NCBI GenBank assembly: GCA_043816185.1
Contig: JBDRIG010000039.1
Location: 1 to 30,094 of the forward strand
Length of the DNA stretch: 30,094 nucleotides
Source of the DNA: Elusimicrobiota bacterium
GTDB taxonomy: Bacteria > Elusimicrobiota > UBA8919
Reading direction: 5' to 3'
Under the pieces are notes generated by a model that saw nothing but the letters and a program-made list of their open reading frames with translations, searched no databases and was not told the origin of the DNA. This document shows, one piece after another, positions 1 to 8,614 of the stretch. Made by a program: the position numbers and the translations under genes. Each line of letters starts with the position of its first letter. Position 1 is the first letter of the stretch.

Positions 1-153
1 GGCGCTCGGGAATTGCTTCGCGGAAACGCCTCGCCTTTGAGGGCGGGCTCTCACTCGCACCGCTAAAAGTCATAAGGTGAAAAATAATAGTGTATGCGGT
101 GCTCCGTGAGGTTCCTCTCAGCAACCCCCTCACTCTGCGATGATATAAGGTGA
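1..153. repeat. Modular GC-rich structured repeat, two modules each ending in ATAAGGTGA
   Basis: 13-81 is identical (69 bp) to 10822-10890. 127-153 (CCCTCACTCTGCGATGATATAAGGTGA) matches 30058-30084 with one mismatch. GCACCGC (57-63) and GCGGTGC (95-101) are inverted. Confidence 0.9.
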
Positions 154-239
154 GAAAGTGTTTCGACATTCTAAAATAATGCCACAATTTATTGTAACTT
201 TAAACAATCCAACTTTTAGTTTTTAATTCTGGTTTACAT

Positions 240-2138
240 ATGTCTTGTAAAATAAAATTTTTACCATCTGATAAAGAGATAACCATTGCAGAAGGAACGG
301 ATTTATTGTCCGCTGCTATGATAGGCGGTATCCAGATTTATAATTCCTGTGGTGGAGAAGGTGTGTGTGGAAGATGTAAAGTCAAAATCATAAAAGGTAG
401 AATTCTTGTGAATGAAACAGATGAAAAAGAAAGAAATGATGACTATGTTCTTGCCTGTCAAACCATCTGCAACGGAAATATGGAGATTTTTATACCAGAA
501 GAATCACGTGTTGAAAATGCAGAAATTTTAACAAAAGGTAAAGAAATTTATACACCTGTTGAATCGATAGATATAACCCCTGCCACTTTTGAGGAAAAAT
601 TTTTCAAGATAAACACACTTTCAACAAAACTTTACCTACGATTACCAAAACCATCACTTAATGATATGGTTGCAGATCTTGAAAGAATTTTCAGAGAACT
701 AAAAAAATTAGAAATTACAAATCCCGTTATGCAAATGGGACTTGCAAATATAAAAAAACTTCCTTCACTTTTAAGAGCAGCAAATTTTGATATTACAGTT
801 ACTCTTGGAAACAGAAATGGCACCATGGAACTTGTAATGGTGGAACCAGGTGATGTGTCCGACAAAAATTTTGGAATTGCTGTTGATATAGGTACAACCA
901 CAATAGTTGCTTATCTTATTAATTTGAACCCGCATTTCGCGAAACAAAAAATCCTTTCCGCAAAAGCAATGTATAATCCGCAGATTTCTTTCGGGGAAGA
1001 TGTTATAACAAGAATAATTCATGCGGAAAATTTATCTGGACTTGACCGTCTACATCGTGTAGTTATTGATGCAATAAACGATTTGATAATTTCGTTGGTT
1101 GTTGAAAACAAAATTTCGCTTAACGATGTTAATTGCGTCGTTTGTGCTGGTAACACAACAATGATTCATCTTTTATTAAAAGTTGACCCAACAAATATTA
1201 GACGTTCGCCGTACATTCCAGCTGCAAACCTATTTCCTACAATTCGTGCAGTCGAAGCAGGTTTAAAAATAAATCCGAGAGGGCTTTTATCGTGTCTACC
1301 GTGTGTTTCCTCATATGTTGGTGGTGATATTACAGCAGGTGTTTTGGCAAGTGGAATGAGCAATTTTTCTCAACTTGCACTTTTTATTGATCTTGGCACA
1401 AACGGTGAAATTGTTTTGGGCAACAAGGACTTTCTTGTATGTTGTTCAACTTCTGCTGGCCCTTGTTTTGAAGGCGGTGGCTTAAAATGTGGAGTAAGAG
1501 CACAAACAGGTGCTGTAGAAAAATTCGAAATTAGCGACGACAAAATTTCAATCAAAACAATCAATAATAAACCACCAATTGGAATCTGTGGCGCGGGTAT
1601 TATCTCTGTTATTGCTGAGTTTTTTGTAAAAGGTATTATTGATAAGGCAGGCAATTTTATTGCAGGTTCTTCAAAATTCTTAGAAAAAACAGATGAAGGA
1701 TTGGAATTTTTCATTACGCCAACAATTTCGATAACACAAGCAGATATAAAAAATTTTATTCATTCAAAAGGAGCAATATTTTCGGGCATAGAAGTTTTAT
1801 TAAAAAAAATGGGTATCGATTTTCATCAGATTTCACAAATAATTATTGCTGGTGGACTTGGTAATGCACTTGACATTGAAAAGTCAATTATACTCGGACT
1901 TTTTCCAGAAATATCAAAAGAAAAATTTTCATTTATAGGCAACAGTTCAATTACAGGTGCTAAAATGTGTCTTTTATCTCAAAGTGCAATGCAAAAAGTT
2001 CAAGAAATTGCACAAAAAATGACATATATCGATTTAAGTTGCGACAATGAATTTATGGATAGTTATACTGCATCACTATTTTTGCCACATACGAATTTGA
2101 ATATGTTTCCGTCGGTAAAAAATGCAAAAAAGCGATGA
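240..2138 (+). CDS. acsV: Reductive activator of the corrinoid Fe-S protein (RACo; N-terminal 2Fe-2S plus ASKHA/DUF4445 domain)
   Basis: CGGEGVCGRC...LACQ ferredoxin motif, DIGTTT, DLGTNGE, AGPCFEGG and GICGAG motifs; lies next to acsD/acsE. Confidence 0.9.
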   Translation: MSCKIKFLPSDKEITIAEGTDLLSAAMIGGIQIYNSCGGEGVCGRCKVKIIKGRILVNETDEKERNDDYVLACQTICNGNMEIFIPEESRVENAEILTKGKEIYTPVESIDITPATFEEKFFKINTLSTKLYLRLPKPSLNDMVADLERIFRELKKLEITNPVMQMGLANIKKLPSLLRAANFDITVTLGNRNGTMELVMVEPGDVSDKNFGIAVDIGTTTIVAYLINLNPHFAKQKILSAKAMYNPQISFGEDVITRIIHAENLSGLDRLHRVVIDAINDLIISLVVENKISLNDVNCVVCAGNTTMIHLLLKVDPTNIRRSPYIPAANLFPTIRAVEAGLKINPRGLLSCLPCVSSYVGGDITAGVLASGMSNFSQLALFIDLGTNGEIVLGNKDFLVCCSTSAGPCFEGGGLKCGVRAQTGAVEKFEISDDKISIKTINNKPPIGICGAGIISVIAEFFVKGIIDKAGNFIAGSSKFLEKTDEGLEFFITPTISITQADIKNFIHSKGAIFSGIEVLLKKMGIDFHQISQIIIAGGLGNALDIEKSIILGLFPEISKEKFSFIGNSSITGAKMCLLSQSAMQKVQEIAQKMTYIDLSCDNEFMDSYTASLFLPHTNLNMFPSVKNAKKR

Positions 2139-2255
2139 TATACTAATACAAGACAACGACGACAGTGACGGAGATGACATACTAAGGCAATGATAGGGCA
2201 ATAAGATTTCTACGTATAGCCATATCAGCGTATAATCGATTTTTCGGAGATTTCA

Positions 2256-3263
2256 ATGGAACAAGTAATTGAAAAATGGCCTGGAAAAATATATGAATTG
2301 ACGATTGGTGCGACAAAAGAAGAGGGTGGAAGTCGCTCAAAAAAAATTAAAATTGGCGGATTTAACACACTCCCATTTCTTTTTTTTGAGTCCTCTCCAA
2401 CAAACAATCCACCTACTTCTCCGACGAGCAATTCACCTGCTTCTGCAATATACAATCCACCTGCTGTTGCGATGGAAGTATGGGATGCAGAACCAATCGA
2501 CTGGCCAGATGTTCTTAAAAATGAATATAGTGGTGTATTGAATGACCCTGCGAAGTGGGCAAAAAAATGCGAGGATACTGGTTGCGATTTAATATGTCTT
2601 CGATTAGAAAGTACAAATCCCGACGGGGAAAATGCATCTGCAACAGATGTAGCAAAAACAATAAAAAATGTTTTATCTGCAACAACCCTTCCTTTAATAA
2701 TAATTGGCTGTGGTAATAGCGAAAAAGATTCATCAATTATTATGAGTATAACCGATTCGGCAAAAGGCGAGAATTGTCTTTTGGGTGTTGCAACAAAACA
2801 GAATTATAAAACATTTACCGCAGCGGCTCTTTCGGGAGGACATTCGCTAATTGCAGAAACTCCGCTTGATATAAATCTTGAAAAACAATTAAATATTTTA
2901 ATAACCGATATTGGATTTAATTCTAACCGTCTTATAATTCATCCGTCAACAGGTGGTTTGGGATATGGGTTTGAGTATTGTTATACAATAATTGAAAGAA
3001 CGCGACTCGCTGCATTATCAGGCGACAAAATGATGTCTCAACCGATAGTTACTTTTGTTGGACAAGAGGTATGGAAGGCAAAAGAATGTAAAACAAATGA
3101 AACGGAAAGACCTGAATGGGGTTCTATTAAAGAGAGAGGTATTTTGTGGGAAATAACAACATCTGTCGGATATATTCAAGCAGGAAGCGATATTGTCGTC
3201 GTAAACCATCCAACAACCATTAAAGAAATAAAAAATTATATTGAAAAGTTAAGCATAAAATAA
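2256..3263 (+). CDS. acsD: Corrinoid iron-sulfur protein small subunit (CO dehydrogenase/acetyl-CoA synthase delta subunit)
   Basis: GATKEEGGSR, AMEVWD, TPLDINLEKQLN, GLGYGFEYCY..IERTRLAALSGD and RGILWE motifs; GGAGA RBS upstream. Confidence 0.93.
   Translation: MEQVIEKWPGKIYELTIGATKEEGGSRSKKIKIGGFNTLPFLFFESSPTNNPPTSPTSNSPASAIYNPPAVAMEVWDAEPIDWPDVLKNEYSGVLNDPAKWAKKCEDTGCDLICLRLESTNPDGENASATDVAKTIKNVLSATTLPLIIIGCGNSEKDSSIIMSITDSAKGENCLLGVATKQNYKTFTAAALSGGHSLIAETPLDINLEKQLNILITDIGFNSNRLIIHPSTGGLGYGFEYCYTIIERTRLAALSGDKMMSQPIVTFVGQEVWKAKECKTNETERPEWGSIKERGILWEITTSVGYIQAGSDIVVVNHPTTIKEIKNYIEKLSIK
2394..2465 (+). repeat. Three imperfect 24-bp in-frame tandem repeats inside acsD
   Basis: tctccaacaaacaatccacctact / tctccgacgagcaattcacctgct / tctgcaatatacaatccacctgct, encoding SPTNNPPT SPTSNSPA SAIYNPPA. 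Confidence 0.85.
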
Positions 3264-3375
3264 AAAACGACACGACGATGTAAGATAGATGATGTAAGAC
3301 AACGACTATAAAACAACAGCGGCCTTACGGTGATACAATTTTTGCGTATTAGCGATAAACATATTGGCAATAATT

Positions 3376-3385
3376 GGGGGGGGGG
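3376..3385 (+). promoter_or_regulatory. G10 homopolymer at the ribosome-binding-site position of ackA
   Basis: Ten G residues ending 7 nt before the GTG at 3393. Confidence 0.55.
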
Positions 3386-3392
3386 TGTAAAA

Positions 3393-4607
3393 GTGAAAAT
3401 CCTTGTCTTAAATTGCAGAATTTATTCTATTGAGTATGAGCTCTTTGAAATGCCTACTCAACACTCATGTGAGCCAAAGGAAACAGAATTGTGTTGTGGC
3501 ATTTTGGAGCATATCGGATTTGATGCCGCTATTCTTACCCATATTACAGGCGACAAAACAGAAAAAACTGTACAATCAGTTTTGGATCATCAGAAAGGAT
3601 TTGAACTTATTATGACAACAATCTTAAATTCAGAGTATAATTGTATCAAATCAAAGGATGAAATTTTTGCTATTGGACATAGGGTTGTACATGGCGGATG
3701 GACATTTACGTCTTCTGTTATAGTCGATGAAAACGTAAAGAAAGAGATTTACAAGAATTTTGAACTTGCTCCAATGCACAATCCATATAATCTAATAGGG
3801 ATTGAAACATCGGAGGTCTTTTTTTCCGGCAAAAAAAATGTTGCTGTCTTTGATACTGCATTTCACCAGACGATGCCAGAGGTTGCTTTCAGATATGCAC
3901 TACCTTCACGATTATATCATGAATATAAAATTAGAAGATATGGTTTTCATGGAACTTTTCATCAATATCTTTCTGAAAAAACTGCACAGTTATTGAAAAA
4001 AGACAAGGCAACATTGATTTCATTTTATCTTGGAGCTGGTTCAAGTGTTTGCGCAATTTCCGACGGTAAATCAATAGATATATCAATGGGTTTTACGCCA
4101 TTAGAAGGACTTGTAATGACCTCTCGTCCTGGTGATATAGACGCAGGAATCATTACTTATCTTTTAAGAAGTGGGTGGACGCTATCTGAAGTTGAAAACT
4201 GCCTCAACAAAGAAAGCGGAACTTATGGTATTTCTGGTATCAGCAATGAAATGAAAGACGTTGTGGAGGCGTTTGAAAAAGGAGATGCAAACGCAAAACT
4301 TGCAATTGATATTTTTGTTTACAGAATAAGAAAATATCTTGGTGCATATTATTTTATTTTGGGAGGGAAAATAGATGCAATTTCATTTACAGGAAAAATT
4401 GCAAAAAATTCGCCTCTTATAAGAGAAAAAATACTTACTGGACTTGAACAGTTTGGAGTGAAAATTGATTCAATAAAAAATGAAAAAACCATCAATACTG
4501 AAGGTGAAATAAGTACATTTGATTCAAAAGTGAAAATATTTGTTTTAACGAGAAACGAAAAATTGTTGATTGCAAGAGAAACAATGAAATTAGTAAAAAC
4601 AGAGTAG
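3393..4607 (+). CDS. ackA: Acetate kinase family protein with divergent nucleotide-binding motifs
   Basis: Start reassigned to GTG 3393 (MKILVLN). GHRVVHGG, LAPMHNP, VAVFDTAFHQT, RRYGFHGT and SMGFTPLEGL are retained; the phosphate-1, phosphate-2 and adenosine motifs are altered. Confidence 0.88.
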   Translation: MKILVLNCRIYSIEYELFEMPTQHSCEPKETELCCGILEHIGFDAAILTHITGDKTEKTVQSVLDHQKGFELIMTTILNSEYNCIKSKDEIFAIGHRVVHGGWTFTSSVIVDENVKKEIYKNFELAPMHNPYNLIGIETSEVFFSGKKNVAVFDTAFHQTMPEVAFRYALPSRLYHEYKIRRYGFHGTFHQYLSEKTAQLLKKDKATLISFYLGAGSSVCAISDGKSIDISMGFTPLEGLVMTSRPGDIDAGIITYLLRSGWTLSEVENCLNKESGTYGISGISNEMKDVVEAFEKGDANAKLAIDIFVYRIRKYLGAYYFILGGKIDAISFTGKIAKNSPLIREKILTGLEQFGVKIDSIKNEKTINTEGEISTFDSKVKIFVLTRNEKLLIARETMKLVKTE

Positions 4608-4612
4608 CATAA

Positions 4613-4704
4613 CACTACTTCGTTGAGTTCAGTCCGTCATCCATGGAAAAGCATGTCAAGTAGAAAATAGGTTGTCAATAAATAAGTCACTTAACGAAGC
4701 AGTG
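4613..4704. mobile_element. Putative ~92-bp MITE or IS remnant with terminal inverted repeats (IS701-like ends by recall)
   Basis: CACTACTTCGTTGAGT (4613-4628) versus the reverse complement of ACTTAACGAAGCAGTG (4689-4704): 14/16 match. Flanks are ATAA and GTAG. Confidence 0.55.
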
Positions 4705-4795
4705 GTAGAAAATAATGAAGAATAAAAGATAAAAAACATCTACTGTTTTCAGTTTCTCGTTTCCTGTTTCACACCTATCTTGATTGGAGAAAATT

Positions 4796-5587
4796 ATGTT
4801 TATTATCGGTGAAAAAATTAATGGAATGTTTAAAAATGTCGGCGAGGCAATTGCAACAAAGAACAAACTGATAATTCAGGAACTTGCAAAAAGTCAACTT
4901 GAAGCAGGTGCTAATGCTTTGGATGTCAACGTAGGACCTACATCAATAGATCCGCTAAAAGACATGGAGTGGCTAATTACTGCAATTCGAGGAGTGACCG
5001 ATAAACCACTTGCTATCGACACGACAAAACTGGCTGTTATGGAAAAAGGACTCTCGTTGGCAGGTAGCGGTTCGTTTTTAAATTCTGTTTCTGGACAAAA
5101 AGAAAAACTTGACTTGCTTTTACCAGTTGCTAAAAAATATGATTCAAAAATTATCGCTTTGACAATGAATAAATCAGGAGTTCCTGCAAATGCCGAATCG
5201 CGTTTGGAAATTGCATTAAATATAATTGCCGCTTGTCAGGAGCACGGAATTGAAATGGAAAATCTTTATATAGATGCAGTTATTCTTCCTGTAAATGTTG
5301 CTCAAGATCACTCGCCAGCAGTCTTGGAAACAATTAAACAATGTAAGCTTATTTGTGATCCTCCGCCTAAAACAATTTTAGGCTTATCAAATGTTTCCCA
5401 AAAAACACTTAACAGATCGCTTGTTGATAGAACATTTCTCATTATGGCTTTAGCATCAGGACTTGACGCCGCAATTTTAAATCCACTTGACAAAGAACTT
5501 GTAAATTCAATGATAACAGCAGAACTTCTTTTGGGTCGTCAACTTTATTGCGACTCGTATTTAGAAGCATATACAAAAAAATGGTGA
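4796..5587 (+). CDS. acsE: Methyltetrahydrofolate:corrinoid Fe-S protein methyltransferase
   Basis: MFIIGEKINGMF, LDVNVGP, LAIDTT, GLSNVSQ and GLDAAI pterin-binding motifs; ATG 4796 follows a GGAGA RBS. Confidence 0.93.
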   Translation: MFIIGEKINGMFKNVGEAIATKNKLIIQELAKSQLEAGANALDVNVGPTSIDPLKDMEWLITAIRGVTDKPLAIDTTKLAVMEKGLSLAGSGSFLNSVSGQKEKLDLLLPVAKKYDSKIIALTMNKSGVPANAESRLEIALNIIAACQEHGIEMENLYIDAVILPVNVAQDHSPAVLETIKQCKLICDPPPKTILGLSNVSQKTLNRSLVDRTFLIMALASGLDAAILNPLDKELVNSMITAELLLGRQLYCDSYLEAYTKKW

Positions 5588-5617
5588 CAGTATTAAAATA
5601 AAGAATAAGGACGTGTT

Positions 5618-7324
5618 ATGGCAAAAAAAATACCATCTGATATTGAGATAGCACAATCAATTAAGTTGAAACCAATAACCAATATTGCGGAAAAAATTGG
5701 CATCAAAAAAAATGAATTAGAATTATATGGTGATTATAAAGCAAAAGTAAAACTTGAAATTCTTGAACGAATAAAAAATAATAATCAAGCAAAATACATC
5801 GATGTAACCGCGATAACACCCACGCCACTTGGCGAGGGAAAAACTGTCACAACAATAGGTCTTTCACTCGGTCTTGCAAAAATTGGAAAGAAAGTTGCAA
5901 CTACAATAAGACAACCATCGTTGGGTCCTGTTTTTGGTATAAAAGGCGGTGCGGCAGGCGGTGGCTATGCACAGGTTTTGCCAATGGAAGATTTTAATTT
6001 ACATTTGACTGGTGATGTCCACGCAGTTTCAATTGCACATAATTTATGTGCCGCATTTTTAGATAATTCTCTCTACAAAGGAAATAAATTTAATATTGAC
6101 ATAAACAACATTTTATGGCGAAGGGTTGTTGATGTTTCAGATAGAGCATTGAGAAATATAAAAATAGGACTCGGAACAAAAGATGATGGAATTCCTCGCG
6201 ATTCAGGATTTGATATTTCAGTATCTTCTGAAGTTATGGCAATACTTGCACTTACAACCTCATTAAAAGATTTGAGGGAACGATTAGGAAAAATTGTTGT
6301 TGCATTTACACCAGACGGTAAACCGATTACTACTGAGGATTTGCAAGTCGCAGGTTCTATGGCAGCCCTTTTAAAAGATGCAATTAAACCTAATCTTCTT
6401 CAGACGACAGAATACACGCCTTGCCTTGTTCATGCCGGCCCTTTTGCAAATATAGCACACGGTAATAGTTCCGTACTGGCAGATTTGATTGCACTGAAAC
6501 TTGCTGATTATGTTGTAACGGAAAGCGGATTTGGTGCTGACTGTGGAATGGAAAAGTTTATGAATATAAAATGCAGATATTCAGGGCTTATTCCAAATTG
6601 CATAGTAATTGTCTGCTCGATACGCGCTTTAAAAATGCATTCTGGAAAATTTATGGTCGTTGCAGGCAAACCTCTTGACGACGGATTGATTAAAGAAAAT
6701 CTACCTGCCATCGAGGAAGGAATTTGTAATCTCGAAAAACACATAGAAAATGCTAAAATGTTTGGTGTGCCAGTGGTTGTTGCGATTAACAAATTTTCAT
6801 ACGATACCGATAAAGAAATAGAATTGGTTAGAGAAAGAGCAATAAAAGCGGGTGCAGATGACGCCGTATTAAGTGAGGTTTGGGAAAAAGGTGGTCAGGG
6901 TGGAGAAGAACTTGCAAAGGCTGTCGTAAAAGCAAGTGAAAAAAAGTCCAACTTCAAATTTTTATATGAACTCAATCAATCAATTAAAGAAAAAATAGAA
7001 ATAATAGCGACCAGGATTTATGGGGCAGATGGAGTTGATTATTTTCCTGAAGCAGAGAAAAAAATTGAACTATACACAAAATTAGGTTACGATAAACTTC
7101 CAATAAATATGGCAAAAACGCATCTTTCACTGTCGCACGATCCGAAACTTAAAGGCAGGCCACGCGGTTTTAGAGTTCCGATAAGAGATATTCGTGCATC
7201 TATAGGTGCTGGTTTTTTGTATCCAATTTTAGGCGAAATAAGAACAATGCCTGGTCTTCCCTCGATACCTGCTGGTACAAAAATAGATATTGATGAAAAT
7301 GGAAAAGTTGTAGGATTATTTTGA
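5618..7324 (+). CDS. fhs: Formate-tetrahydrofolate ligase
   Basis: TPTPLGEGKTVTT, GIKGGAAGGGYAQV, HAGPFANIAHG and TMPGLP motifs. Confidence 0.98.
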   Translation: MAKKIPSDIEIAQSIKLKPITNIAEKIGIKKNELELYGDYKAKVKLEILERIKNNNQAKYIDVTAITPTPLGEGKTVTTIGLSLGLAKIGKKVATTIRQPSLGPVFGIKGGAAGGGYAQVLPMEDFNLHLTGDVHAVSIAHNLCAAFLDNSLYKGNKFNIDINNILWRRVVDVSDRALRNIKIGLGTKDDGIPRDSGFDISVSSEVMAILALTTSLKDLRERLGKIVVAFTPDGKPITTEDLQVAGSMAALLKDAIKPNLLQTTEYTPCLVHAGPFANIAHGNSSVLADLIALKLADYVVTESGFGADCGMEKFMNIKCRYSGLIPNCIVIVCSIRALKMHSGKFMVVAGKPLDDGLIKENLPAIEEGICNLEKHIENAKMFGVPVVVAINKFSYDTDKEIELVRERAIKAGADDAVLSEVWEKGGQGGEELAKAVVKASEKKSNFKFLYELNQSIKEKIEIIATRIYGADGVDYFPEAEKKIELYTKLGYDKLPINMAKTHLSLSHDPKLKGRPRGFRVPIRDIRASIGAGFLYPILGEIRTMPGLPSIPAGTKIDIDENGKVVGLF

Positions 7325-7429
7325 TATACATTAAAATCCTATTTTGATATACCTTAAGCACGTTGTGCTCAACTTCATATCTGACAAATTACTAACTATA
7401 CCCATAATTTATATCGAACAATCGTTATT

Positions 7430-8614
7430 ATGAAAATGAAAAAATTTGAAAAAAATTGTTTAAAATTTTTGTTGAAAATGGTATCTACTAAAAGTTTGTC
7501 GAAAAACGAAAACGCTATTTCTGAAATCGTTGCCAAAGAGATGATGGCATTGAATTATGATGATGTCAAGATCGATAAACTCGGTTCTGTTGTTGGAAGA
7601 ATTGGAAACGACATATCTCAAAACGGCAAAAAAATTCTTTTTGATGCCCATATAGACACTGTTGGAATTGCCGATATAAAACAGTGGAATACAAATCCAT
7701 TTAAAGCAGTTTATAAAAATGGAGTTGTTTACGGAAGGGGTTCTTGTGATGATAAGGGTTGTGTCGCATCAATGGTTTATGCAGGAAGTTTAATAAAAAA
7801 ACTTGGGCTTTTAGGCAATTCTACGCTTTATGTTTCTGCGTCGGTTCAAGAAGAAACTGCTGAGGGCTGCGGAATTGATTATGTCCTTAAAAAATTAAAA
7901 TTTCGCCCAGATTGTGTTGTTATTGGCGAACCGTCAAACTTAAAAATTGTTAGAGGACATAAAGGCCGTGCAGAAATAAAAATCACAGCAATTGGTAAAT
8001 CCTGTCATGCAAGCACGCCTTCCGAGGGCGAAAATGCAATCTACAAAATCCTTCCGATAATAGAACACATTGACAAACTTAACAAAGAGTATAAATCAAC
8101 CTCACAACTCGGAAAACCAACAATATCAGTAACACAGATAGAAACAAAAAATGCATCAACAAATACAATTTCAGACAATTGTACAATTTATATCGACAGA
8201 AGGACTGTTGACGGAGAGACGAAGAAAAAGATTGATGGCGAACTTGAAAAAATATGTTGTAAAAACATAAAAATAGAATATCTGAAGAAATTTTTCAGTG
8301 CATGGATTTTACCAAAAGAACATTCTCTTGTTGAAGCAGCAATTTTATCCTATAAAAAAGCATACTCACAACCGAACCGTCGGCAAGGTCAATATGGTCG
8401 ACGGACAAGCAAAAAAAATCCGGATGTTATTCTGTGGCCATTTTGTACAAACGGTTCTTTCACAATGGGCGAAAAAAAAATTCCGACAATTGGTTTTGGA
8501 CCTGGCGAAGAAAAATATGCCCATATTGCAAACGAACAAATAAAATTCCGCGATGTTCTAACAGCGATAAAATTTTATTCTATCTTTCCATCGACATTTT
8601 CATCGAAAAAATAG
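7430..8614 (+). CDS. M20 family metallohydrolase, YgeY/ArgE-like
   Basis: DAHIDTV, GRGSCDDKG, VQEE, GEPS, CHAS..P..GENA, FCTNG and GFGPG..AH..NE motifs. Confidence 0.85.
   Translation: MKMKKFEKNCLKFLLKMVSTKSLSKNENAISEIVAKEMMALNYDDVKIDKLGSVVGRIGNDISQNGKKILFDAHIDTVGIADIKQWNTNPFKAVYKNGVVYGRGSCDDKGCVASMVYAGSLIKKLGLLGNSTLYVSASVQEETAEGCGIDYVLKKLKFRPDCVVIGEPSNLKIVRGHKGRAEIKITAIGKSCHASTPSEGENAIYKILPIIEHIDKLNKEYKSTSQLGKPTISVTQIETKNASTNTISDNCTIYIDRRTVDGETKKKIDGELEKICCKNIKIEYLKKFFSAWILPKEHSLVEAAILSYKKAYSQPNRRQGQYGRRTSKKNPDVILWPFCTNGSFTMGEKKIPTIGFGPGEEKYAHIANEQIKFRDVLTAIKFYSIFPSTFSSKK

Follow-up and report, generated by a model that had tools for sequence, protein, structure and literature searches.

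What does an acetate kinase do once the residues that hold its nucleotide have been replaced? The question is raised by the gene for a variant acetate kinase paralogue, AckV, on contig JBDRIG010000039.1 of an Elusimicrobiota bacterium (assembly GCA_043816185.1, lineage UBA8919), of which a stretch of 30,094 nucleotides was analyzed and is referred to in full as the window. In textbook accounts, acetogens make ATP at the substrate level with acetate kinase, whose nucleotide motifs are regarded as near-invariant. To our knowledge, the pyrophosphate (PPi)-dependent enzyme of Entamoeba histolytica is the only natural exception that has been characterized. AckV retains the acetate and acetyl phosphate side of the active site, its phosphoryl-partner side is rebuilt, and its gene lies in an acs operon of the Wood-Ljungdahl pathway. 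Judged from these sequence features, the function of AckV is probably not the textbook production of ATP. The reading that we favor, with a probability of about 0.4, is that AckV is an acetyl phosphate phosphotransferase with a non-canonical partner. We also propose, tentatively, that it is a functional, vertically inherited acetate kinase paralogue of the Elusimicrobiota acs cluster, standing beside a canonical AckA and the phosphotransacylase PduL.

Sequence and Predicted Fold of AckV

By sequence and by its predicted two-domain acetate and sugar kinase/Hsc70/actin (ASKHA) fold, AckV is a member of the acetate kinase family. The protein matches the Pfam model Acetate_kinase (PF00871) with 414.2 bits (cut-off 22) over profile positions 1-392 of 392, and the NCBIfam subfamily model TIGR00016 with 422.5 bits, above its cut-off of 293.4. 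The equivalog-level NCBIfam models all stay below their cut-offs for AckV, the best being NF009063 with 346.5 bits against 659. An AlphaFold2 model from a 25-sequence alignment has a predicted local distance difference test (pLDDT) score of 83.1 and a predicted template modeling (pTM) score of 0.81, with low confidence in residues 161-171, 177-181, and 234-248. In Foldseek comparisons, the model has template modeling (TM) scores of 0.86 to the Thermotoga structure 2IIR and 0.83 to the Methanosarcina thermophila structures 1G99/1TUY.

The Phosphoryl-Partner Side of the Active Site Is Rebuilt

Residue equivalences were taken from a HMMER alignment to M. thermophila 1TUU/1G99 and Thermotoga 2IIR and are given in M. 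thermophila numbering. The residues N7, S12, R91, V93, H123, D148, F179, H180, G212, P232, R241, I332, N335, N383, and E384 are kept in AckV, including all acetate-site residues apart from the conservative change L122M. We take R91, H180, and R241 to function in transition-state and acyl-phosphate binding, and E384 to be a Mg ligand. The remaining changes are G9R, S10I, S11Y, K14E, H208Y, N211A, G239T, D283E, F284M, R285K, G331K, G333A, E334K, T382R, and E385K. The PHOSPHATE1 loop is affected most heavily, only N7 and S12 being left of the canonical AckA hallmarks N7, S10, S11, S12, and K14. The nucleotide-phosphate contacts N211, G239, and G331, which are found in 96, 99, and 93 of 100 canonical sequences, respectively, are Ala, Thr, and Lys in AckV.

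The roles of these residues are known from canonical enzymes (PMC4390882). N211 contacts the β-phosphate and forms a hydrogen bond to G239, G331 contacts the α- and β-phosphates and is conserved in all acetate kinases except the Entamoeba enzyme, and the five PHOSPHATE1 hallmarks are conserved in prokaryotic and eukaryotic acetate kinases (PMC4390882). The changes in AckV therefore fall on the phosphoryl-partner side. An earlier note on this DNA, made from the sequence, had quoted the same motif strings and had described the acetate and acetyl phosphate side as retained; each string is found at its position in the window, and the alignment to 1TUU/1G99 places R91, H123, D148, H180, and R241 in AckV.

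The Replacements Define an Elusimicrobiota Clade

Among the best 120 matches of a search of 5.8 billion proteins, the variant signature is present in 39, and the other 81 are canonical. A taxon label is available for seven of the 39 variant matches, and all seven are Elusimicrobiota/Elusimicrobia. Pooling the database matches with copies from the genomes of relatives gave 56 unique variant and 100 unique canonical sequences, and every clade member with a taxon label or a place in a genome belongs to the Elusimicrobiota. Each replaced position is 89-100% conserved in the 100 canonical sequences, and the concerted replacement goes far beyond what chance would produce. In the variant clade, position 9 (canonical Gly) is Arg in 52/52 sequences, position 10 (canonical Ser) is Ile, Val, or Met in 52/52, position 11 (canonical Ser) is Tyr in 34, His in eight, Lys in six, and Asn in four of 52, and position 14 (canonical Lys) is Glu or Asp in 52/53. 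Asn is found at position 211 in 0/56 (A39 Q11 E3 I1 S1 D1) and Gly at position 239 in 0/56 (T41 S9 M3 N2 P1). Position 285 is Arg in 2/55 and Lys in 43/55, and positions 382 (canonical Thr) and 385 (canonical Glu) read R45 K6 G4 and K44 D7 G2 R1 T1 (n = 55 each). The acetate side is retained across the same set: R91 and H123 in 55/55, and D148, F179, H180, G212, P232, and R241 in 56/56. The claim that the concerted change is confined to the phosphoryl-partner side is thus borne out by 56 clade sequences compared with 100 canonical ones.

In two quick maximum-likelihood trees (69 and 59 rows), all variant rows fall on one side of a branch with a Shimodaira-Hasegawa-like approximate likelihood ratio test (SH-aLRT) value of 100, and by this sequence phylogeny the variant clade is monophyletic, with a single origin. 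The trees included 20-23 of the 81 canonical database matches together with canonical copies from Elusimicrobiota genomes, and the fragments P0020, P0033, P0037, and P0056 were excluded. The clade is narrow, since in a profile search of 1.84 billion representatives clustered at 50% identity only three of the best 150 (P0121, P0122, and P0126) carry its signature. In a scan of genome contigs with the AckV alignment, the best 80 of at least 597 relatives (at least 601 stretches) all have the canonical-type Gly-Ser/Thr/Ala PHOSPHATE1 loop (78 fit G[ST][ST][ST] and two read GSAT), a result that has no bearing on the range of the clade outside the Elusimicrobiota.

The variant gene is under purifying selection and strongly conserved. 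For 14 pairs of the closest genomes, the pairwise ratio of nonsynonymous to synonymous substitution rates (dN/dS, ω) is 0.061-0.122 for the variant and 0.041-0.137 for the canonical copies of the same pairs, many of these pairs having saturated dS. In the least saturated pair, G009-G010 (dS 0.26), ω is 0.091 for the variant and 0.111 for the canonical copy, and in the pair G001-G010 (dS 0.39) the values are 0.115 and 0.133. The earlier note had proposed a check of substitution conservation and dN/dS, and on both counts the replacements prove to be maintained, being conserved in the clade with dN/dS of about 0.06-0.12.

The replaced elements are not all of the same extent. Those found clade-wide are PHOSPHATE1, N211, G239, R285, and T382/E385. 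By contrast, the ADENOSINE motif is canonical (FTGGIGENS) in most members, including basal lineages, position 331 reading G36 R8 D7 K2 A2 (n = 55), and H208 is kept in 39/56 sequences and replaced by Tyr in 17/56. The proposal that all nucleotide-binding motifs are remodeled thus holds for the window protein and not for the clade, in which the ADENOSINE and H208 changes occur only in some sub-lineages. Because G331 and H208 are canonical in most members, an occluded adenosine pocket of the Entamoeba type, which the earlier note had invoked, is not the defining feature; on the aligned sequences, that feature is the rebuilding of the phosphate-contacting loops. A shallow sub-lineage marked by FTG[KR]I[AG]KNS and Y208 (P0001-P0004 and P0020; genomes G001, G009, and G010) includes the window protein. 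A nested long-branch sub-clade (P0036, P0040, P0042, P0052, and P0056; genomes G060, G074, and G126) combines G331D and N335E with the loss of N383 and E384 (PRSGDL); it keeps the acyl-phosphate pocket (R91, D148, H180, and R241) and the same operon slot between acsD and acsE.

Comparison with Characterized Acetate Kinases

Similar to AckV, the ATP-dependent AckA enzymes (EC 2.7.2.1; 1G99/1TUY and 2IIR) adopt the acetate kinase fold, with 44-46% sequence identity to AckV and TM scores of 0.83-0.86. The two share the acetate and acetyl phosphate pocket and the catalytic residues R91, V93, H123, D148, F179, H180, P232, R241, N7, and E384. Among the differences are the PHOSPHATE1 loop, GSSS..K in AckA and RIYS..E in AckV, and the location of the gene, which for AckV is inside the acs operon rather than beside pta. 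The propionate kinases TdcD/PduW also have the same fold, their structures matching AckV in sequence with E values of 1e-74 to 1e-83. TdcD/PduW and the butyrate kinase Buk have canonical nucleotide motifs and a different acyl pocket; AckV is the converse, with an acetate-type acyl pocket and a differing nucleotide side. Butyrate kinase models give AckV only about 67 bits, far below their cut-offs. Formate or another acyl compound as the substrate was set aside, as V93, F179, and P232 are kept and the variation at L122 is only conservative.

The PPi/inorganic phosphate (Pi) acetate kinase of E. histolytica (4H0O) is more distant, with a TM score of 0.77 and 28% identity to AckV in the structural alignment, and there is no special phylogenetic link between the two. 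The Entamoeba enzyme carries N211T, G239S, and G331Q (PMC4390882), so the three positions altered in it (Thr, Ser, and Gln) are those altered in AckV (Ala, Thr, and Lys), with different residues. The acetate side is kept in both. In the Entamoeba enzyme, the bulky residues Q323/M324 narrow the adenosine pocket; AckV has G331K with I332 kept. The Entamoeba D272-R274 pair (PMC5517563) is Glu/Lys in AckV. The PHOSPHATE1 hallmarks, reported to be conserved in characterized acetate kinases, including those of eukaryotes (PMC4390882), are lost in AckV apart from N7 and S12. On these residue comparisons, AckV lacks several hallmark residues of the canonical enzymes and does not reproduce the Entamoeba solution. 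No account of an acetate kinase paralogue that is linked to the Wood-Ljungdahl pathway and has a rebuilt PHOSPHATE1 loop turned up in a full-text literature search; in the accessible part of a study of groundwater Elusimicrobia, acetate kinase is mentioned only generically (10.1101/765248).

Acetate Branch and Pyrophosphate Economy of the Genome

The genome that contains the window (1.44 Mb, 112 contigs, 94% complete) encodes a second, canonical ackA on contig C81, with the motifs NSGSSSVKY, HLGNG, SSDMRA, FSAAIGERS, and PTNETI, and a canonical second copy is present in 13/13 variant-carrying genomes checked. The search for such a copy, which the earlier note had suggested, was therefore answered in the same genome. 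Pta (PF01515) was not found in the 94% complete genome, and a PduL-type phosphotransacylase is present (C10:5845-6366). With canonical ackA and PduL, the route from acetyl-CoA through acetyl phosphate to acetate and ATP is covered without AckV. A role of AckV as a stand-in for a missing phosphotransacetylase was dropped because the PduL-type enzyme is present. The C81 ackA gene adjoins ndk and an isocitrate/isopropylmalate dehydrogenase-like gene, both named from their translations, without a family search.

The genome also encodes a membrane H+-PPase (862.6 bits) and a PPDK-like frame of 915 aa, and a family-I soluble pyrophosphatase was not found in this 94% complete assembly.

Possible Functions of AckV

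In the mechanism that we favor, AckV would still bind acetyl phosphate and acetate, as the kept acyl-phosphate half-site suggests, and would catalyze acetyl-P + X <-> acetate + X-P, with the partner X held otherwise than ADP or ATP in canonical enzymes. The partner site would be rebuilt around the new conserved basic and aromatic residues R9, Y/H11, R382, and K385, with a charge reversal through K14E and E385K. The window sub-lineage appears to have gone further, as G331K, G333A, E334K, and H208Y would remove the contacts to the nucleotide α- and β-phosphates. The leading candidate for X would be Pi/PPi because the only known natural non-ATP acetate kinase differs at N211, G239, and G331, all of which are changed in AckV. 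Pi/PPi use would involve a smaller energy quantum than ATP and would feed the membrane H+-PPase and PPDK. As the specific partner, Pi/PPi has a low probability in our view. AckV would then be the first acetate kinase of bacteria to use Pi/PPi, would have arisen independently of the Entamoeba enzyme, and would be hard-wired into a Wood-Ljungdahl operon, an outcome to which we likewise give a low probability.

Several observations weigh against a phosphotransferase with a non-ADP partner, and against Pi/PPi in particular. The ADENOSINE motif is canonical in 36/55 clade members, including basal lineages, which fits continued nucleotide binding. The loss of E384 in the nested sub-clade in the same operon slot (G7, A3, and S1 of 55) may indicate that kinase chemistry is dispensable. 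If the PHOSPHATE1 hallmarks hold in the PPi enzyme (PMC4390882), their loss in AckV would lie outside the known PPi solution. The Entamoeba enzyme has an additional glycine in PHOSPHATE2 (G203; PMC5517563) without a counterpart in FYLGAGSS of AckV, and only P0052 among the tabulated sequences has one. Entamoeba-like swaps gave the Methanosarcina enzyme no PPi activity (PMC5517563). Finally, H+-PPase is found in 235 of 251 genomes drawn evenly from the phylum; being near-universal, it permits a PPi role without pointing to one.

A rather unlikely alternative is that AckV is a non-catalytic pseudo-enzyme, an acetyl phosphate- or acetate-sensing or structural accessory of the corrinoid protein/acetyl-CoA synthase (ACS) module, which might, for example, tune the activity of RACo, the corrinoid iron-sulfur protein (CFeSP), or the methyltransferase to the level of acetyl phosphate. 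Strict invariance across the clade is confined to residues of the acyl-phosphate pocket, and the partner side drifts, G331 being lost in several lineages, E384 in 11/55, and N383 replaced by Ser in eight. In addition, the post-acsD slot is conserved, with overlapping or near-abutting frames in some genomes, and the catalytic need is already met by canonical AckA. A mere binder would have no need of E384, the presumed Mg ligand, which is intact together with N7, R91, H180, and R241 in AckV and in 44/55 members. Moreover, the replacing residues R9, E14, R382, and K385 are themselves conserved, which suggests a new specific site rather than loss.

We judge it unlikely, too, that AckV is still a nucleoside triphosphate (NTP)-dependent acetate or short-chain acyl kinase, that is, an isozyme dedicated to the operon and changed in its kinetics, nucleotide preference, or direction, in which compensating basic residues and a PHOSPHATE1 loop of different build would do the same job. 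Such an isozyme would be consistent with the full-length family match above the TIGR00016 cut-off, the intact catalytic core, and the GGIGENS motif kept in most of the clade. In the Methanosarcina enzyme, the single substitutions N211A and R285K cost only about 6-9-fold, and a fungal enzyme with N211S still uses ATP (PMC4390882). However, five to eight hallmark positions are changed together in the variant proteins, including S10, S11, K14, and G239, and G239S alone causes an about 190-fold loss (883 vs 4.6 specific-activity units; Table 1 of PMC4390882). The window sub-lineage adds G331K/R, at a position where G331Q causes an about 117-fold loss (Table 1 of PMC4390882). The shortfall against every NCBIfam equivalog model also speaks against a standard isozyme, and it is hard to explain why so radically different a loop would be maintained by selection if the chemistry were unchanged.

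It is highly improbable that AckV is an incipient pseudogene, which the earlier note had considered, or a relic, with a duplicated ackA in decay once its function was lost, and this reading was rejected. The window copy does have a terminal branch about 3-fold longer than those of its sisters (0.11-0.12 vs 0.02-0.05), but the canonical copy of the same genome is equally accelerated (0.22 vs 0.04-0.10), so the long branch reflects genome-wide acceleration. The frame is intact in the window and in 13 genome copies with extracted coding sequences, dN/dS is low (0.06-0.12), and the same substitutions are conserved throughout a clade that reaches down to 49% identity.

The specificity determinants of the Entamoeba enzyme are described as unresolved (PMC5517563). 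The variant clade offers a second, independent natural experiment, with dozens of diverged members and a canonical paralogue in the same genomes as an internal control, and its operon position points to the machinery of the carbonyl and methyl branches. If the partner of the favored phosphotransferase is Pi/PPi or another acceptor, the ATP bookkeeping of the Wood-Ljungdahl pathway would change in these organisms, and new specificity determinants would be revealed. With Pi/PPi, pyrophosphate and the membrane H+-PPase would take the place of ATP in the coupling of acetogenic acetyl phosphate, or of acetate activation in reverse, giving energy-limited Elusimicrobiota a second, smaller energy "gear" beside canonical AckA. 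The broader claim that acetogenesis energetics are changed is softened by the coexistence of canonical ackA and PduL. A pseudo-enzyme bound to the corrinoid/ACS module, if that is what AckV is, would add a new accessory factor to that complex.

Gene Neighborhood and Distribution in the Phylum

The features of the locus are collected in Table 1. The link to an acs operon that the earlier note had drawn is upheld: the genes for AcsV, AcsD, AckV, AcsE, and Fhs lie in this order in the window, and acsD lies directly upstream of the variant gene in 16/19 loci of relatives, the exceptions being G006 and G126, at contig edges, and G011. The AcsV/RACo protein of the window scores 609.9 bits against NF040756, below the cut-off of 800. 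The acsE gene lies no more than about 1.5 kb downstream of the variant gene in 11/19 loci; a mobile insert of about 3.9 kb separates the two genes in G010, and three unrelated genes do so in G012. The acsD and variant frames overlap by 14 nt in G012, and in G106 about 26 nt separate the aligned acsD end from the gene start.

Table 1. Features of the ackV locus, in window positions
Feature	Position	Strand	Description or basis
AcsV/RACo, corrinoid activation protein	240..2138	+	Pfam RACo_C_ter, Raco_middle, RACo_linker, Fer2
AcsD, small subunit of corrinoid iron-sulfur protein	2256..3263	+	directly upstream of AckV; PF03599; NF003376 400.6 bits (cut-off 280)
Run of ten G, likely Shine-Dalgarno region for GTG 3393	3376..3385	+	read from sequence
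AckV coding sequence (variant acetate kinase paralogue)	3393..4607	+	404 aa, GTG start, TAG stop
PHOSPHATE1 hairpin NCRIYSIEY (canonical N[AC]GSSS[LIV]KY)	3411..3437	+	remodeled
GHRVVHGGW, R91 and V93 of acetate/acetyl phosphate site kept	3675..3701	+	alignment
PMHNP, H123 kept, L122M	3771..3785	+	alignment
FDTAFH, D148 kept	3849..3866	+	alignment
GFHGT, F179 and H180 kept	3942..3956	+	alignment
PHOSPHATE2 FYLGAGSS (canonical CHLGNG[AS]S), H208Y and N211A	4023..4046	+	alignment
LOOP3 MTSRPGDID, G239T, R241 kept	4116..4142	+	alignment
LOOP4 SNEMKD (canonical S[NS]D[FM]R[DE]), D283E and R285K	4242..4259	+	alignment
ADENOSINE motif FTGKIAKNS (canonical FT[AG]GIGENS), G331K, G333A, E334K	4386..4412	+	lineage-specific
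TRNEKL (canonical PTNEEL), T382R and E385K, N383 and E384 kept	4548..4565	+	alignment
AcsE, methyltetrahydrofolate:corrinoid methyltransferase	4784..5587	+	downstream of AckV; PF00809; NF005719 285.5 bits (cut-off 259)
Fhs, formate-tetrahydrofolate ligase	5618..7324	+	PF01268 864 bits; NF010030 808 bits

In the sample of 251 genomes, a copy was called variant at an identity of at least 49% and E <= 1e-118, and G074 (48%) was added on its loop. The PHOSPHATE1 loop could be read in 20 of the 21 variant-carrying genomes, G007 having only fragments at contig ends. The variant is found in 21/251 genomes and CdhC, the acetyl-CoA synthase, in 29/251. Both are found in 19 genomes, the variant only in two, CdhC only in 10, and neither in 220, a table that is descriptive, the genomes being related. 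The two variant carriers in which CdhC was not found are G011 (94% complete) and G212 (79% complete), the latter with acsD and acsE flanking the gene.

Individual loci show further arrangements. In G010, the order is AcsB-AcsC-AcsV-AcsD-AckV-...-AcsE-...-formate dehydrogenase, and the insert between the variant kinase gene and acsE (G010:C1 5348-9179) encodes a YhcG-type PDDEXK nuclease, an integrase fragment, and a nucleotidyltransferase/HEPN pair. In G011, the order is H+-PPase - flavodoxin - ychF - AckV - fchA - folD (C96 4326-10723), and no CdhC was found. In another Wood-Ljungdahl lineage, a canonical-type acetate kinase (NYGSSTVKF) is encoded immediately downstream of acsE (G066:C58 369-2403). 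This gene was considered as an evolutionary intermediate and ruled out, as it branches outside the variant clade in the tree. Because it lies outside the clade, acs clusters appear to have acquired acetate kinase genes on more than one occasion.

A prediction of an AcsD-AckV complex gave an interface score (ipSAE) of 0.00 in two runs without controls, which speaks neither for nor against binding. A groundwater metatranscriptome library (X1) contains a 384-nt contig piece identical to acsD at 2580-2963 and a 119-nt piece at 3922-4040 that carries one inserted base and is loose at one end, data too sparse to show transcription or habitat. Two further libraries (X2 and X3) held nothing useful for the locus. 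A promoter and terminator scan of window positions 1-8000 gave counts no higher than in shuffled sequences, and Rfam had no match within the window.

Gene Model and Additional Observations

The open frame in the window extends over 3330-4607 (+). The gene start was set at the GTG at 3393 because all orthologues begin MKILVLN, and this shared start confirms the gene limits that had been assigned before. The gene had also been called full length and intact, and PF00871 is matched end to end in an unbroken frame. The G10 run, likely the Shine-Dalgarno region, ends 7 bases upstream of the GTG. After the first hairpin, AckV contains a seven-residue insertion (around PTQHSCE; window 3453-3479, AckV residues about 21-29) that is absent from its closest homologues, and the model confidence drops to about 64 there. 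The window AcsD has an insertion as well, a low-complexity Asn/Pro/Ser/Thr-rich segment (NNPPTSPTSNSPASAIYNPP; window 2400-2459, AcsD residues about 49-68), owing to which it is 335 aa long compared with 311-319 aa in 15 orthologues.

Among the representatives clustered at 50% identity, P0139, P0153, P0165, P0168, P0208, P0249, and P0265 have degenerate PHOSPHATE1 loops that are not of the Gly-Ser type and are unlike that of AckV. By sequence, these proteins may be further uncharacterized offshoots of the acetate kinase family. Two of them, P0249 and P0265, are about 780-800 aa long and have a stretch of about 170 residues ahead of the kinase part.

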